Origin: a virus
Taxonomy: Duplodnaviria > Caudoviricetes
Direction: 5' to 3' (one strand)
DNA length: 33,190 nt
Virus record (IMG/VR): IMGVR_UViG_3300048577_000421
Span: 1-33,190 of that record
The notes beneath the pieces are model-generated. The model had not been told where the DNA came from and did not search any database. It saw nothing but the letters and a program-made list of their open reading frames with translations. The translations under genes were made by a program, and so were the position numbers. This document shows, piece by piece, positions 2,106-24,755 of this stretch. The first letter of the stretch is position 1, and the number at the start of each line of letters is the position of its first letter.

Positions 2106-4262
2106 TTAACGTAAGCGGTACATAACAAAGTTGAATCCCATATCTTGAAAGGAACCAGGGTCATTAAACATGTTTACCACAAAGGAGTTTAGCTGGCGGT
2201 CATCCCATGTACCATAGTTGTCATACTCGGTGTTGCCCAACACCCTTGCCGTTATTAGGACTCCATAGTAAGCAATGTTGGCATTATGGGTAATCCTATA
2301 CCTTCCATTTCCAATCTTGTCCACAGCGAAGGGATAGGAACCAACCCTATTTTCGCCCCAGTAGTCTTTTATACTGCCCGAAGAATCCACCATTCCTGCA
2401 CAAATCACATCCAAGAAGTGCTCCTTCTTCGAGCCGTCGGGGTTAATGGTACCGCTGGGGAAGCAGGCCTCCAGCTGCTGCTGGGTAAGGTAGCTCCCCT
2501 TGGGCTGGTACTTATCGTCGTGGTTATGGTTGGTATCCGCCTTGGCAGTAGGGTCAAAGTTGCCGGAATGGAAGATTTTTACCCAGTCGCTCCACTCGCT
2601 GGTTGCCCAGTCAGATATAACCCTCAGCCACATTTCCCCATTGCCGGTTTTTCCGCCACCTCCCCTGCTATCTATAAATAATTCGCCACCAAACAAGGGA
2701 CCTTGAAACTGAATCACATTCCCATAAGTGCCGGGGTATCCGTTATCGATAACCCCCCTAAATCTCATTCCTTTAAGATTCCTATTTGCACCAGCTAGTG
2801 CGGGAATACTATCTAGAGAGGAAATGCTGTCATGTACATGGTTTGAGGGTGCCTTTCCTGCCAGCGCATTCATCACGGTGGTCGCAAAGTTGGGGTCGTT
2901 CCCCAGCGCAGCGGCCAGCTCATTGAGCGTATCCAGCGCCGCTGGCGATGAGGCGACCAGCTCCGCCACTTTTTGCTTTACGTGCTCAATGGTGGCGTAA
3001 TTTTCCGGTTTGAAATTTCCTGTATGATAAAAATTCAGAATATCAAACGAGACCTCCTTGCTTATTTCAGACGGTTTCTGCTCATCGGTAATTTCTAAAA
3101 CTCTGTTGATTTTGACTGTTGCAGCAGTATCTTCAACAAACACACTGAACCCTTGCCAGTATGATTGCCGAGGAAACCAAAAGCATAAGTATCCGTTATA
3201 GCAAAAGGCCACAATTCCGTTGATGGGAGCACCCTGTGAAATGCCTCCCTTATGGATAATGGTATTATTGTACATGTACCCTTGAATTTTTAAATCAAAC
3301 GGGTAACCTGCAGAGTAACTATTACCTTGTAGCTCAAATAAAAAAGAAGCTCCTTCTGAATCTTGATACCACAAGGATGTTTTAATTAACGTGCCATAAA
3401 CAAAGTCTCGCTTTGTTTGCTTGGGTTGTATGATAGAAAGGCTAAGACCGCCAAGCTTTTCAGCATCCTTTGCTGTTTCTGTTTTCCCAAGGTAGCTGTC
3501 ATGCGTATGGTTTGTACTAGCCTTTCCCGCCAGCTGTTTGGTCATGGTTGCCGCAAAGTTGGGGTCATTTCCCAGCGCAGCGGCCAGCTCGTTGAGCGTG
3601 TCCAGCGCGGCTGGTGATGAGGCCACCAGCTCTGCAATTTTTTGGGCAACATCGGCGGGAGTCGCCTTGGCATTCCACTCGCTAATTTTAGCGGCGGACA
3701 CCATCCGGTTCTGGTCATCCTGCTCGATCATGGAGGCGGGATGCTTGGCCGGGTGAACGTAGTTGTTAGCGTTAGCCTCAATGCCCGTTAGCTTGCTGCG
3801 CTCCGTATCGGTAAGGAAGCGGTGCTTGGCATCCTGAATGGCATCTACAAAGCTTTTGCCTCCTGCTACGCCAACCTCGAGGTACGGCTTATCGGTAGGT
3901 TTAACCCCAGCAGCGGCAGCCCTGAAGTCGTAGGCGATGGGCTTCACCTTTAAGTCTGCATAGGCACGCTCAAGTGTAGAGTAGGATAGCGTAAGGTATA
4001 TAGGTAGCGTAACACCCGTAATGCCAGCAAACGGAGCCACCTTAAAGGTAGGCTGCCCGTTCTGGTCTGTCCCCTCCAGCGCCACCATGCCTGGCGTAAC
4101 GGAGTAGGTATTCCCCGTTTGAATCACGTCGCAACCCCTAATGATGCAGGAGCCGTACTCCTCAAAAAAGGCGGTTATAGCCACCAGCGGCTCGTGCTGG
4201 AGGTCTACCAGGTCTTGCCCCGCCCACTTCCTGACCCCCGTTTTTTGTACTTGCTCCTTCAT
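2106..4262 (-). CDS. Modular tail fibre protein
   Basis: Follows the baseplate genes; two LDTLNELAAALGNDPNFA fibre repeats, HxH motifs (NHTH, NHVH, NHNH) and a knob-like WSDWVKIFHSGNF segment. Confidence 0.88.
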   Translation of the reverse strand: MKEQVQKTGVRKWAGQDLVDLQHEPLVAITAFFEEYGSCIIRGCDVIQTGNTYSVTPGMVALEGTDQNGQPTFKVAPFAGITGVTLPIYLTLSYSTLERAYADLKVKPIAYDFRAAAAGVKPTDKPYLEVGVAGGKSFVDAIQDAKHRFLTDTERSKLTGIEANANNYVHPAKHPASMIEQDDQNRMVSAAKISEWNAKATPADVAQKIAELVASSPAALDTLNELAAALGNDPNFAATMTKQLAGKASTNHTHDSYLGKTETAKDAEKLGGLSLSIIQPKQTKRDFVYGTLIKTSLWYQDSEGASFLFELQGNSYSAGYPFDLKIQGYMYNNTIIHKGGISQGAPINGIVAFCYNGYLCFWFPRQSYWQGFSVFVEDTAATVKINRVLEITDEQKPSEISKEVSFDILNFYHTGNFKPENYATIEHVKQKVAELVASSPAALDTLNELAAALGNDPNFATTVMNALAGKAPSNHVHDSISSLDSIPALAGANRNLKGMRFRGVIDNGYPGTYGNVIQFQGPLFGGELFIDSRGGGGKTGNGEMWLRVISDWATSEWSDWVKIFHSGNFDPTAKADTNHNHDDKYQPKGSYLTQQQLEACFPSGTINPDGSKKEHFLDVICAGMVDSSGSIKDYWGENRVGSYPFAVDKIGNGRYRITHNANIAYYGVLITARVLGNTEYDNYGTWDDRQLNSFVVNMFNDPGSFQDMGFNFVMYRLR
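2883..3635. repeat. 84-bp direct repeat pair (2883-2966 and 3552-3635) inside the tail fibre gene
   Basis: Both copies encode AELVASSPAALDTLNELAAALGNDPNFA. By manual count 76/84 nt are identical and all 8 differences are at third codon positions. Offset 669 nt. Confidence 0.9.
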
Positions 4263-18235: not shown

Positions 18236-18646
18236 ATGAGAAAAATTTCGCACATCGTGGTGCACTGCAGCGCCACCGCACAGAACGCATCGGTAGCCGC
18301 CATACAGCGCTACTGGAAGGAGAACCTCGGATGGAAAAGCCCCGGCTACCACTACATCATCGAGGCCAGCGGGAATATTGTTAAGCTGCTGGACGAGGGC
18401 AAGCCCTCCAACGGCGTAGCCGGACACAACGCCACGCTGATCAACGTCTGCTACATCGGAGGTATTGACGCTGCCGGAAAGCCGAAGGATACGAGAACCG
18501 AGAAGCAGAAGGCCTCGCTGCTGTTTTTGCTGGAGCAGCTCAAGGATCGCTACCCGTCGGCGGTTATCTGCGGCCATCACGATTTTCCTGGCGTGAAAAA
18601 GGCCTGCCCGTCGTTCGATGCCAAGGCGGAGTATAAAAACGTCTAG
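18236..18646 (+). CDS. N-acetylmuramoyl-L-alanine amidase endolysin (Amidase_2, T7 lysozyme-like)
   Basis: IVVHCSAT, GYHY, VCYIGG and GHHDF...KACPSF Zn-amidase motifs. Confidence 0.92.
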   Translation: MRKISHIVVHCSATAQNASVAAIQRYWKENLGWKSPGYHYIIEASGNIVKLLDEGKPSNGVAGHNATLINVCYIGGIDAAGKPKDTRTEKQKASLLFLLEQLKDRYPSAVICGHHDFPGVKKACPSFDAKAEYKNV

Positions 18647-19093: not shown

Positions 19094-20353
19094 ATGAATA
19101 AAAAGCGCCATTTAAAAAGGCCTTCAGGGCAGGTGCAGCTGGCTGCTTCGGCAACCGAAAATACAAAAGCCCCCAAACGGGGCGATGGATACGCCCGCAA
19201 GCTGATCCCGAAGGCCATCTCCCGGGTTCGGGTCGATGTTGCCACCTGGCGAAAGGCGCAGCAAAGGGCCGACAGCGTGGATACGCCCCGCCGGGGGGCG
19301 CTCATTCGCCTCTACGAGGAGGTGGGTATAGATTCCATGATAGAGAGTCAAATGGGGCAGCGCATCGACAAGGTGCTGGCAGCGCCCTTCTCCATTAAGA
19401 ATGCCAAGGGCGAGGCTGACGAGGAGCTAACGGGAACGCTTAAGAACACGAAGCTGGTGGGGCAGCTTACCACCCGCATCATGGAGTCCATCTTTTACGG
19501 CCACTCGCTGGTGGAGCTCAACACGCCCGAGCACGACAGCGGATCGGAAGGCGTCGACGCGCTGTACCAGGTGGAGCTGCTGCCTAGGGGGAACGTCGTA
19601 CCCGAAAAGGGGATGCTGCTGCTGAAGGAGGACGACTCCTCCGGCATCATGTACCGTACGGCAAGGGAGTACGGCACCTTTATTCTGGAGTTTGGCGAGC
19701 AAAAGAGCTACGGCCTGCTAAATAAGGCGGTGCCGCACGCCCTCTTCAAGCGATTTGCCCAGTCCTGCTGGAGCGAGCTGTGCGAGATTTACGGCATACC
19801 GCCCCGCGTGATGAAGACGAACACCTCGGACACGGAGATGCTCGACCGTGCGGAGGCCATGATGCGCGACATGGGGTCGGCGGCCTACTTCATTATCGAC
19901 GAGACGGAGGAGTTTGAGTTCGCTCAAGGGGTAAGCACCAGCGGCGATGTTTACCATAACCTAATACAGCTTTGCAACAACGAAATGCAGATGCTCTTTA
20001 CAAGGGCAATTGTAGGGCAGGACACCAAGAACGGCAACAGGAGCAAGGAGGAGTCCAGCCAAAAAATTACGGATAACGTATTCCAAAGCGACAAGGTATT
20101 TACCCAGCAGGTATGGAATTCCATCGTTATTCCGGCGCTTGTTAGGTTGGGGATTCTACCTGCAGGGAGCACCTTTGCCTTCGAGGCCGAGGAGGACATC
20201 GAAAAGCTCTGGAGCATGACCAAGGATACCATGCCCTACATGGACGTAGACCCCGAGTGGCTTACCGAGAAGTTTGGCATCAAGGTGCTGGGCGTTAAGC
20301 AGCAGCCCGCCACGCTGTCGCTTGGGACGGGGGAATCCCGTTTTTTCGGCTAG
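19094..20353 (+). CDS. Portal protein (DUF935/Mu gp29-like)
   Basis: IFYGHSLVEL, W.ELCEIYGIP and CNNEM...IVGQ patterns; 419 aa. Confidence 0.88.
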   Translation: MNKKRHLKRPSGQVQLAASATENTKAPKRGDGYARKLIPKAISRVRVDVATWRKAQQRADSVDTPRRGALIRLYEEVGIDSMIESQMGQRIDKVLAAPFSIKNAKGEADEELTGTLKNTKLVGQLTTRIMESIFYGHSLVELNTPEHDSGSEGVDALYQVELLPRGNVVPEKGMLLLKEDDSSGIMYRTAREYGTFILEFGEQKSYGLLNKAVPHALFKRFAQSCWSELCEIYGIPPRVMKTNTSDTEMLDRAEAMMRDMGSAAYFIIDETEEFEFAQGVSTSGDVYHNLIQLCNNEMQMLFTRAIVGQDTKNGNRSKEESSQKITDNVFQSDKVFTQQVWNSIVIPALVRLGILPAGSTFAFEAEEDIEKLWSMTKDTMPYMDVDPEWLTEKFGIKVLGVKQQPATLSLGTGESRFFG

Positions 20354-20372
20354 GCCCCGCGCTAGCCGGGGC
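20341..20372 (+). promoter_or_regulatory. Candidate -1 programmed ribosomal frameshift signal joining portal to MuF
   Basis: T TTT TTC heptamer in the portal frame (20341-20347), 6-nt spacer, GCCCCG-N7-CGGGGC hairpin (20354-20372). The -1 frame is open into MuF. Confidence 0.7.
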
Positions 20373-20484
20373 GCTTAACCGTACGTACCAGCTGGCAGCT
20401 GATGGAGGTGCGGAGCCTTCAGGAGATGTAACTGAGGGCATTGTAGAGCAATACCTGAACAAAATCTACTCAGGTGCTTGGAGT

Positions 20485-21663
20485 ATGGAGCAGCTCATTC
20501 CAGAGCTGTACTTCCATACGGTTGGGGTGCTGCTTAAGGCCTACGAAGAGGGATACGAAAAGAAGTTCTTTAGCCCGGACTGGACGCTGAAGGATACCGA
20601 GCTGCTCGGACGCGTGCAGAATAACCTCTTTGCCTTCAGCGGCGCAAAATGCTACGCCCAAATGCTGGAGCTGCGCGATGCGGTATACGAGGATGGGCGA
20701 AGGCTACCCTTTAACGACTACCGCCGAAAGGCGCTAAAGGTTAACGCCCGCTACAACATCACCTACCTGGAGGTGGAGCGGCAGGCGGTAATAGCAGCCG
20801 GAACGGCAGGAAGCCGATGGGTGGACATTCAGGAGAGCAAGGACACGCACCCCTACCTGCTGCTGCTTACCGCAAACGATGAGGACGTGCGCGAGGAGCA
20901 CCGACGGATGGCAGGAATCCTACTTCCCGTTGATGACCCCTTCTGGCTGCAGTACTACCCGCCCAACGGTTGGAGATGCCGCTGCTACGTGCGTAAGCTC
21001 ACCCAGCGCCTGTACGAGGAGATGGCAAAGAAAAAAGGTATGCTTACCAGCTCCGATGAGGCCATGAAGGTTGGGGGGCATGCCGTAGATAAGGCCTGGC
21101 GCCACAACGTGGGCACCTCCGAAATTTTCGAGAAGGACGGCTCCGCCTACTTCAAGGCGAGCCCGGCAGCTGCCGAAAAGCAGCTATCCGCCGTGAAAAA
21201 CTACGGTATGAAACCAGCCAAGGTTATCTATGGCAACCCATCGCAGCTATCCGCCTACAAGGGTGATATTGCTACCGAGGATGCCTACCGCCGCTACTGG
21301 GCGAAGCTGGAGGAAAAGTACGGGACGGCTGGTGAAGGATTTTCGCTACTAGATAAGGGTAACGGGATACGGGCGACATTCGACGTTAAGCTCAAGGAGA
21401 AAATGGTGGAGCGTGGCCGCCATACCTACTTTGATGAGGTGCTGGAGGTGTTTACCAAGCCGGATGAGGTGTGGGCTATTTATAAGGGTAGCACAAAGGT
21501 AAAGTTCAGCTCCGAATTTTTTAACGTTTACCTGAAGTACTACGGCGATGTGCCAGCCGTGCTGCTGGTGAACTCCCAAGGCAGGGTGGACAGCTTCTAC
21601 AAGCTGGCATCCGTGCAGCAGGCCGAGGACTTTAGGCTAGGCCTACTCAAACAAAAAAGGTAG
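20485..21663 (+). CDS. MuF (SPP1 gp7-like) minor head protein with C-terminal PBECR2-like nuclease domain; frame open from 20299
   Basis: MuF motif DDPFW..YYPPNGWRCRC; C-terminal R..Y...PDEVW...YLKYY...SFY...R.GLL pattern. Confidence 0.85.
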   Translation: MEQLIPELYFHTVGVLLKAYEEGYEKKFFSPDWTLKDTELLGRVQNNLFAFSGAKCYAQMLELRDAVYEDGRRLPFNDYRRKALKVNARYNITYLEVERQAVIAAGTAGSRWVDIQESKDTHPYLLLLTANDEDVREEHRRMAGILLPVDDPFWLQYYPPNGWRCRCYVRKLTQRLYEEMAKKKGMLTSSDEAMKVGGHAVDKAWRHNVGTSEIFEKDGSAYFKASPAAAEKQLSAVKNYGMKPAKVIYGNPSQLSAYKGDIATEDAYRRYWAKLEEKYGTAGEGFSLLDKGNGIRATFDVKLKEKMVERGRHTYFDEVLEVFTKPDEVWAIYKGSTKVKFSSEFFNVYLKYYGDVPAVLLVNSQGRVDSFYKLASVQQAEDFRLGLLKQKR

Positions 21664-23702: not shown

Positions 23703-24755
23703 TTAAACGGTTTCGGTATCAAAGTAAATTTTGTAAAAGGACATCTTCTTTTCGGAGTCGTAGCCTTTTTCCATTAACTCACGGTTCCCATGCATGTAGA
23801 TGTGGAAGTTCTTATCCAACTTTATTAAACTCTTAAACTGCTTGGCCATGCCTTTGACAACTCCAGAGGAGATGGTAAACTCATCGTCTACCTTAACTTG
23901 GTAAAGGGTCGAGTACTTGTCCTTGTAGTCCTTAAAGGCTTCAACAATTTCAGGTTGCGCCAGCACCTTTGCCTCAAAATCGCCAGCGTTAAACACCTCG
24001 TTTTCCTTAAAGTATTGCGCGGTGCGATTGAGCATGTCCACCCGATCTGCTGGATCTACATCGTTATCCTCGTTGAATACCTCCTTTACGAACTGCTTGC
24101 AGACATCCAAGTAGGTGCGGGTCTTGTAGTAACTATCCTCACGCGGCTTCACCTGCAGGAAGGCCTCCTTCCAGTAGACCGCATCGCCGTTCCTTGTGGT
24201 GTTATCCACCACGCATATCTTATAACCAGCCTCACGTTCAGTATTGAAAATAAGGCACCCTTTATCCAGATTGAAGGGGTTAATTCCCCTTTCTGTCACC
24301 ACATATCTTTCACCATTTAAGTTTTTTACGCTTAAGAATGGCTGGTTACTTTCCGATTTGAAAATTCCTACGGCATCGCATACCTCGCCTTCTACAATCA
24401 CATCGTTAAGGAGTACCACGTACAGTTCGCCTCCCGAAATTTTAGGATGGAGCGATGCCTCGTATAGCTGCTTTGCGATTAACTCGCTGGCAGCTACAAA
24501 ATCATCCTCCCTGTCGAATATGGCAGAAGACTCCCTATAAATAGCATTCATTTCTAACGAAGAGGCATGGCTGAAGTTGAAAAATACATCACCCCTAAAT
24601 GGAGCAAAGAAGTAGCGCTTAAGTACATTTGTGGTAAAATCATCGTCAATAGGTTCTACGGTTCGGGTTGAAAGTTCTAAACCTTCGTCTCTTAGCTTAT
24701 TTCCTACTCGATGAACGATAAATTTTCTAATAGATGCTTCCGTAAACTCAATCAT
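23703..24755 (-). CDS. Nucleoid-associated protein, YejK/NdpA (NA-37)-like
   Basis: 350 aa; IVHRVGNK, HPKISGGELYVV, GIFKSE, LDKGCLIFN and YWKEAFL motifs. Confidence 0.8.
   Translation of the reverse strand: MIEFTEASIRKFIVHRVGNKLRDEGLELSTRTVEPIDDDFTTNVLKRYFFAPFRGDVFFNFSHASSLEMNAIYRESSAIFDREDDFVAASELIAKQLYEASLHPKISGGELYVVLLNDVIVEGEVCDAVGIFKSESNQPFLSVKNLNGERYVVTERGINPFNLDKGCLIFNTEREAGYKICVVDNTTRNGDAVYWKEAFLQVKPREDSYYKTRTYLDVCKQFVKEVFNEDNDVDPADRVDMLNRTAQYFKENEVFNAGDFEAKVLAQPEIVEAFKDYKDKYSTLYQVKVDDEFTISSGVVKGMAKQFKSLIKLDKNFHIYMHGNRELMEKGYDSEKKMSFYKIYFDTETV

Follow-up and report, generated by a model that had tools for sequence, protein, structure and literature searches.

The tail assembly chaperone genes G/GT, found in lambda and most long-tailed phages, carry a slippery heptamer near the 3' end, and the -1 extension made there sets the ratio of short to long product, 30:1 in lambda (PMC5009743; this and the other sources cited by PMC number are drawn on for part of their text). 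Here we analyze a candidate programmed -1 ribosomal frameshift signal that likewise lies near the 3' end of an assembly gene, namely at the junction between the portal gene and the MuF gene of a Mu-like transposable phage contained in a DNA stretch of 33,190 nucleotides (IMG/VR record IMGVR_UViG_3300048577_000421, positions 1 to 33,190; hereafter the window). Unlike G/GT, this cassette of heptamer, spacer and hairpin sits in a portal gene, whose product is a permanent part of the virion; its extension is the head protein MuF, its 3' hairpin is conserved, and it occurs in both wirings, in which the long product would be made either by shifting or in frame 0.

Two wirings of one signal are also known from dnaX (tau/gamma), in which the shift leads to a stop (E. 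coli) or a frame-0 stop is bypassed by shifting to give the long form (Chlorobium, a listed candidate) (PMC5009743). dnaX differs from the portal cassette in being a cellular replisome gene and in slipping at A AAA AAG with the aid of a Shine-Dalgarno stimulator on the 5' side. The two dnaX forms co-assemble in one ring complex. Capsid and tail extensions in T3, T7, A2, A118 and PSA resemble the present case in placing a C-terminal domain on a fraction of subunits, and in occurring in both in-frame and frameshifted versions (PMC5009743), but the domains added there are mostly Ig-like and surface-exposed, whereas here the extension is a conserved, otherwise separate gene whose product is predicted to lie inside the head.

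MuF itself is treated as a separate protein in papers on the SPP1 gp7/MuF family and on MuF toxins, the available text of which contains the word "frameshift" 0 times (PMC5576092, PMC11699363). An in-frame covalent portal-MuF has been published for Microbacterium phage clusters EA3/5/8 and EB, with a portal of a different family (PF04860) and with no frameshift proposed in the part of that paper covered (PMC7302621); gene 4 of phage Dismas, a fusion of this kind, has no strict in-frame heptamer. In the open full text of PMC and bioRxiv, with subscription journals and some supplements lying outside it, we found no proposal of frameshifting in a portal gene, and the word "portal" occurs 0 times in the first 300,000 of the 449,034 characters of PMC5009743. 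What is already in print is thus the in-frame portal-MuF fusion (PMC7302621) and, for dnaX, the reversed wiring (PMC5009743), while the reversed wiring of the cassette in fused portal-MuF genes is new here. GenBank records of the cultured phages carry no joined feature at the portal/MuF junction.

The cassette at the portal-MuF junction

The elements at the junction in the window are the following.

19094 to 20353, plus strand: Mu-type portal gene, with a 419-aa zero-frame product ending FFG-stop (Pfam Portal_Mu, PF06074, E 2e-66)
20299 to 21663, plus strand: MuF reading frame, -1 relative to the portal and without stops
20341 to 20347, plus strand: slippery heptamer T TTT TTC (X XXY YYZ), set in the portal frame as CGT TTT TTC GGC TAG
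20348 to 20353, plus strand: 6-nt spacer that includes the portal stop codon TAG
20354 to 20372, plus strand: predicted stimulatory GC hairpin GCCCCG/CGGGGC (fold -13.6 kcal/mol)

We propose, with a probability of roughly 0.88, that heptamer, spacer and hairpin act as a programmed -1 ribosomal frameshift signal that extends some portals with MuF. With the two Phe codons in its P and A sites, the ribosome would meet the downstream hairpin and a fraction would slip one base back; slipped ribosomes would read on through a linker, MuF and an RNase-like C-terminal domain, and those that do not slip would stop one codon on. The two products would measure 856 aa (about 97 kDa) and 419 aa (47 kDa). 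Slippage would be of the tandem-tRNA type, stimulated by the 3' hairpin without a Shine-Dalgarno stimulator; Bacteroidota are not known to use Shine-Dalgarno pairing. The window phage would then produce MuF chiefly, or even exclusively, as an extension of the portal. The portal crown is the C-terminal part of the protein. Because SPP1 gp7 binds the portal at one to two copies (PMC5576092) and in the related JBD30 portal the crown remains within the capsid (PMC11445458), we infer that both forms would co-assemble in the 12-subunit portal, with a few MuF domains hanging inside the head, a position that SPP1 gp7 takes up without a covalent link.

The earlier note on this DNA, made without database searches, had described the portal end, heptamer, spacer and hairpin, all of which are present in the sequence as described; its further points, a MuF frame free of stops over 20299-21663 with the first ATG, GTG or TTG at 20485, and a fusion of about 856 aa, also proved correct on recalculation. 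The minimum-energy fold of 20353-20380 is the GCCCCG/CGGGGC hairpin. A competing pairing, GGCTAG/CTAGCC, can indeed form in the window but was not seen in the relatives' junctions inspected, and we dropped it. Compared with shuffled sequence, the window fold is not unusual (z of +1.21, +0.04, -0.17, -1.04 and -2.81 in five windows), so the significance of the hairpin comes from its conservation; Rfam gave no match at 20200-20600. Strains about 90% identical to the window over 20250-20560 (311 nt) show 27-29 differences there and zero within 20338-20379, and one more distant contig has a single change in the latter interval, at loop base 20361. The run of six T is free of indels in contigs from 8 independent public sequencing runs; these data are contigs, probably of DNA, and are silent on expression and mRNA indels.

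To compare the junction across relatives, we gathered loci (numbered with the prefix L) by portal homology only, plus annotated phages, with scans keeping the best 80 hits each, so that the sample is biased to close portals. The resulting 421 loci, duplicates included, fall into four groups: MuF runs across the portal stop in the -1 frame in 368, portal and MuF are fused in frame in 28 (27 and the reassigned L251), 15 are truncated and 10 are of other kinds. Clustering at 70% portal identity, with the 15 truncated loci and cores of <200 aa left out before counts, gave 100 clusters, 86 of them of the -1 class; L201 was treated apart as a one-base insertion, L420 was left out of the tree, and D3112 (L418) was retained among the 86 as a miss. 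Several of the "other" loci still show the cassette: L091, L093 and L235 carry it with MuF broken further on, L156 carries it behind an upstream indel, and L367 has the heptamer. The separate-gene loci L249, L250 and L419, the MuF-less L420 and L141 also fall here. Outside these counts, a metagenome scan added 8 loci, 4 of which include the junction, and 4/4 of these have the heptamer and the stem start.

A strict in-frame heptamer lies within the portal/MuF overlap in 363/368 of the -1 loci (TTTTTTC in 321, TTTTTTT in 22, AAATTTT in 18 and an A run in 2). By cluster, a heptamer falls within the last 20 codons in 82/86 portal ends vs 58/336 other gene ends in the same loci, and heptamer plus stem (-10 kcal/mol or better, 5-9 nt after the heptamer) in 72/86 portal ends vs 3/336 other gene ends and 1/112 heptamers inside the portal. 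The portal stop follows one codon after the heptamer in 61/83 clusters. Clusters whose portal ends in FF always spell the first Phe as TTT and place a T before it (71/71; 19.6 expected from gene codon use), and several lineages swap the site for A AAT TTT (18 loci) or an A run, so that the peptide changes and X XXY YYZ stays. The junction is conserved as a nucleotide signal and not as a peptide motif.

The stem behaves in the same manner. Its onset is at spacer 6 in 80/90 clusters, and a 6-bp stem forms with the cluster's own 3' arm in 80/90 (89%) vs 8% when arms are swapped; where the 5' arm is not GCCC, 26/33 pair with their own 3' arm vs 13% with others' arms. The arms thus co-vary across relatives. 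No excess of a Shine-Dalgarno-like stimulator was found 5' of the heptamer (10/83 vs 19/83 in the control), nor was there a conserved upstream hairpin (15/83 vs 16/83 in controls), and a U tract follows the conserved hairpin in only 3/73. Aligning related junctions, which the earlier note had suggested as a check, returned a conserved heptamer, a stem co-varying at a 6-nt spacer and a -1 frame that is open and coding.

Among cultured or named phages, the cassette is present in hankyphage p00, TCUEAP3 and BS-TP1 (all of the -1 type) and, reversed, in two P. gingivalis phages; it is absent from lotta8-2, FPSV-S1, D3112 and Mushu. BS-TP1, a Bacteroides phage of 112 kb whose portal is 25% identical, has A AAT TTT followed by an unrelated stem, GAGAGGGG/CCCCTCTC (L416:3640-3700), so the signal is not confined to the Mu-like group of 30-45 kb. 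Both A-run sites, A AAA AAA in Peternella_1 (L253:3670-3697) and A AAA AAT in fF4 (L415 near 3110), have weak stems; in Peternella_1, MuF is annotated as starting 98 nt downstream.

Between the heptamer and the first ATG of the MuF frame lies a stretch that would be annotated as an intergenic gap.

20347 to 20484, plus strand: annotation "gap" upstream of the first start codon, -1-frame coding, comprising a linker helix and the first MuF helix
20485 to 20487, plus strand: earliest ATG in the MuF frame; the start is not conserved (Met in this column in 2/83 clusters)

The suggestion that this gap is coding is borne out by residue conservation, third-position substitution bias and predicted helices. 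Across clusters, Tyr16 is conserved in 91% and Leu8 and Leu12 in 65%, and the -1 product of the gap aligns with L009 from residue 1. Substitutions at -1 codon positions 1/2/3 number 317/228/729 in the linker up to the first ATG (66 pairs), and 64/49/168 when counted only up to the first ATG, GTG or TTG (20 pairs, 9 clusters). AlphaFold2 applied to the -1 product (61 rows, mean predicted local distance difference test score, pLDDT, of 84) places helices at residues 7-20 and 32-44 (pLDDT 72-90), both of which precede M20485, residue 49 of this product. Linker indel phase was considered as further support and dropped, with single gaps off-frame in 13/14 and a net of zero in 9/10 gapped pairs re-examined; an open -1 frame is part of the definition of the -1 class and is not independent support in that comparison.

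No ATG occurs before the first MuF helix in 61/83 clusters, and no ATG, GTG or TTG in 27/83; in L132 and L140 the first possible MuF start comes 114 and 101 codons in. An ATG lies near the portal stop in 4/83 clusters, vs an ATG before the portal's own core in 83/83. We conclude from these comparisons that MuF is a gene without a conserved start and that the gap evolves as -1-frame coding sequence. Cysteines often cluster in the -1-frame linker of relatives, for example in L092, L132 and L138, as CxCxxC or, in fused genes, as CCGxH; this possible metal site is absent from the window.

Reversed wiring in fused portal-MuF genes

A homolog search for longer proteins returned 88 natural portal-MuF fusions of 743-934 aa, a range that includes the 856 aa predicted for the window fusion. 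The junction motif FFxxA[PLS] is kept in 78/88 of these proteins (47/57 at 90% and 17/26 at 70% identity). At the DNA level, 13 distinct fused junctions carry in frame 0 both T TTT TTY and, after a further six bases, a stem that begins with GCCC, and the -1 frame meets a stop after 17-41 codons; the fused L089 has no strict heptamer. In these relatives, slipping to -1 would release a short portal instead of adding MuF. Synonymous positions of the fused-gene signal are fixed in 11/11 clusters (90%), with 3.6-4.9 expected, and the cassette in fused genes is therefore under selection and not a decaying relic. The earlier note's central claim, that programmed -1 frameshifting yields a fusion of portal and MuF, draws support from both the comparative tests and the natural fusions.

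A quick portal tree with 105 rows, 12 of them fused, requires 6 changes of wiring to account for the fused rows, and well-supported branches force at least 4 of these. Some of the apparent changes could instead result from recombination among phages. The heptamer T TTT TTT is used by 8/11 fused clusters vs 15/152 clusters of the -1 class (90%), a preference that may tune slip efficiency upward in fused genes. In a model of one fusion (predicted template modelling score 0.40), the site falls in a disordered linker, residues 387-433, between folded portal and MuF.

In L201 (Flavobacterium covae AL-02-36, region 2501-3673) and in protein P0180, one extra T in the run joins portal and MuF in frame and the junction reads FFRL. 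The additional base may be an error of assembly, may mark phase variation or may have made the fusion permanent. In the two Flavobacterium phages lotta8-2 and FPSV-S1, the end of the portal (L249:3700-3805 and L250:3850-3949) resembles the linker, with a helix, a Tyr and Cys-Lys-His, and MuF begins at its own ATG 4 nt past the portal, a third arrangement of the same parts.

Alternative explanations

The long T run invites the explanation that RNA polymerase, and not the ribosome, slips there, with an extra U in some mRNAs making the fusion. T runs are present at most sites (6 T in 58/83 clusters and 7-9 T in 13/83), L201 and P0180 show a DNA-level extra T fixing the fusion, and Thermus dnaX uses polymerase slippage (PMC5009743). 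We nonetheless regard this as very unlikely, since 10/83 clusters have only four T (A AAT TTT) and 2/83 have no T run, the heptamer is locked to the portal frame in 71/71, and an upstream hairpin is no more frequent than in controls; furthermore, the hairpin that is conserved lies 6 nt downstream, where, by the established mechanism, it would be met by the ribosome and not by the transcribing polymerase. The T run could instead complete an intrinsic terminator or attenuator and thereby reduce expression of MuF, and a terminator-like match at 20323-20340 on the plus strand does end just upstream of it. Such matches number four in the window vs 3.8 expected, however, the 3' arm of this one is altered in close strains (20335-20337), and the conserved hairpin lies 3' of the T run and is seldom followed by a U tract, all of which makes termination extremely unlikely.

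Separate synthesis of MuF, with initiation at 20485 or a non-canonical codon and with the T run and hairpin serving coupling or mRNA stability, gains from the existence of the ATG at 20485, from the Mu-like phages D3112 and Mushu and from lotta8-2 and FPSV-S1, in all of which MuF is separately expressed, and from the clusters with some early start codon. Against it, M20485 lies past the first conserved helix, which the stand-alone MuF of lotta8-2 includes; its codon is TTG in close strains (A20485T); the first possible starts of L132 and L140 lie more than a hundred codons into the frame; the sequence before any start evolves as coding; and the phase of X XXY YYZ and its retention in fused genes are left unaccounted for. 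We hold this account to be very unlikely for the window. In hankyphage-type loci, MuF may be made separately, adding to or replacing the fusion. A last alternative, that an assembly error or the recent loss of one base has split what is really a fused gene in the window, is refuted: in-frame fusions are common and homopolymers are error-prone, with errors in L091, L093 and L156, but the same split, with its stop one codon past the heptamer, recurs in 61/83 diverged clusters, no indel appears in the 8 independent runs, and in genuine fusions the stem is translated in frame 0 (FFxxAP) and not as a mended -1 frame would have it.

Several observations weigh against ribosomal frameshifting as we propose it. 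The heptamer-plus-stem test fails in 14/86 clusters, including the outgroup D3112, clusters with relaxed sites (L142, L215) and clusters with weak stems (L140, L234, L236, L253), and related clusters are not independent of each other. Early starts precede the first MuF helix in 22/83 clusters for ATG and in 56/83 for any ATG, GTG or TTG, and an ATG stands at the portal stop in hankyphage and three others. In lotta8-2 and FPSV-S1, portal and MuF are separate genes and MuF has its own ATG, and therefore fusion is not required across the whole family. L141 lacks a heptamer, and its MuF, which lies in the +1 frame, shares 107 nt with the portal; this may reflect an error or another kind of arrangement. 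For an equal subunit ratio, slip efficiency would have to differ between the two wirings. In hankyphage particles, for which 20 portal and 3 MuF peptides are reported, both proteins were recovered in the 250-85 kDa slice, which contains small proteins too and so cannot decide (PMC12135933).

The tryptic junction peptide that the earlier note had put forward for mass spectrometry is impractical because Arg stands on both sides of the two Phe, and GluC or LysC would be needed. As a side observation, the S6 table accompanying the hankyphage study lists TerS and the major capsid protein under the same accession and with the same values, which is probably a mistake in the table (PMC12135933).

The putative MuF cargo, its genomic setting and significance

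Downstream of its core, the MuF frame of the window ends in a variable domain, followed by the neck gene.

21304 to 21648, plus strand: variable C-terminal domain, PBECR2-like (BECR RNase-type fold, predicted; PBECR2 24.5 bits, cut-off 27.1)
21768: start of the neck gene, after a 105-nt gap behind MuF

The MuF core itself is recognized by Pfam at about 20776-20991 (MuF1, PF04233, 41.3 bits vs a cut-off of 29.6), in a gene that follows the portal; the portal profile matches the solved portals 9khx and 8rka, and the head-gene context also fits a Mu-type portal. With VIA-align (max Z 6.1), the C-terminal domain gave Z of 4-6 to CdiA-CT, the colicin D tRNase and BrnT, Foldseek with the -1 product gave no match at E 0.001 or better, and a sequence search found no solved MuF structure. 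Domains at this position among relatives include CdiA_C in 17, PBECR2 in 7 and LPD3 in 4 of 61, and 16/79 clusters have short products without such a domain. The earlier note's nuclease at the DNA exit vertex is a weakly supported proposal, with PBECR2 below cut-off, weak matches to RNase-type folds and a domain that is swapped or missing in relatives. Unlike in MuF polymorphic toxins, no immunity gene follows MuF in the window, only the gap and the neck gene.

The window as a whole represents a Mu-like transposable phage with transposase and MuB-like genes, terminase, gp36 adaptor, portal, MuF and neck, together with protease, capsid, sheath and tape measure on the other strand, and the named homologs are from Bacteroidota. 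An amidase (endolysin-like) gene lies within the head operon between terminase and gp36 adaptor (18236-18646, plus strand), and a gene for an NA37 (YejK-like) nucleoid-associated protein is found at 23703-24755 on the minus strand (E 7e-31). The tail chaperone gene (11381-11085, minus strand) ends ATA AAA AAG CTT TAG, with the heptamer A AAA AAG at 11097-11091, a -1 frame open to 10909, directly before the tape measure ATG, and a stem of -10.1 kcal/mol; by its layout, this is a canonical G/GT site and a second predicted -1 signal of the window phage.

Taken more broadly, we consider it somewhat better than an even chance that in Bacteroidota transposable phages one repeatedly flipped cassette sets the composition of the portal ring, with slipping adding MuF in most lineages and cutting it off in others, including the Porphyromonas gingivalis phages. 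The ring would then be a dodecamer of both forms, and a tuned share of its subunits would carry MuF and a swappable RNase- or toxin-like cargo into the head, with covalent tethering to the portal as the packaging route for these MuF proteins. In the usual view, the portal is a simple 12-mer encoded by an ordinary gene; the proposal also bears on the route by which low-copy MuF and MuF-borne toxins reach the head interior. If our proposal is true, the portal would join the short list of recoded phage genes, hundreds of MuF genes from gut, oral and aquatic Bacteroidota prophages would be annotated with wrong starts, and fused "portals" would be annotated without their short form. These junctions would also form a natural two-wiring signal set for the study of frameshifting in Bacteroidota.

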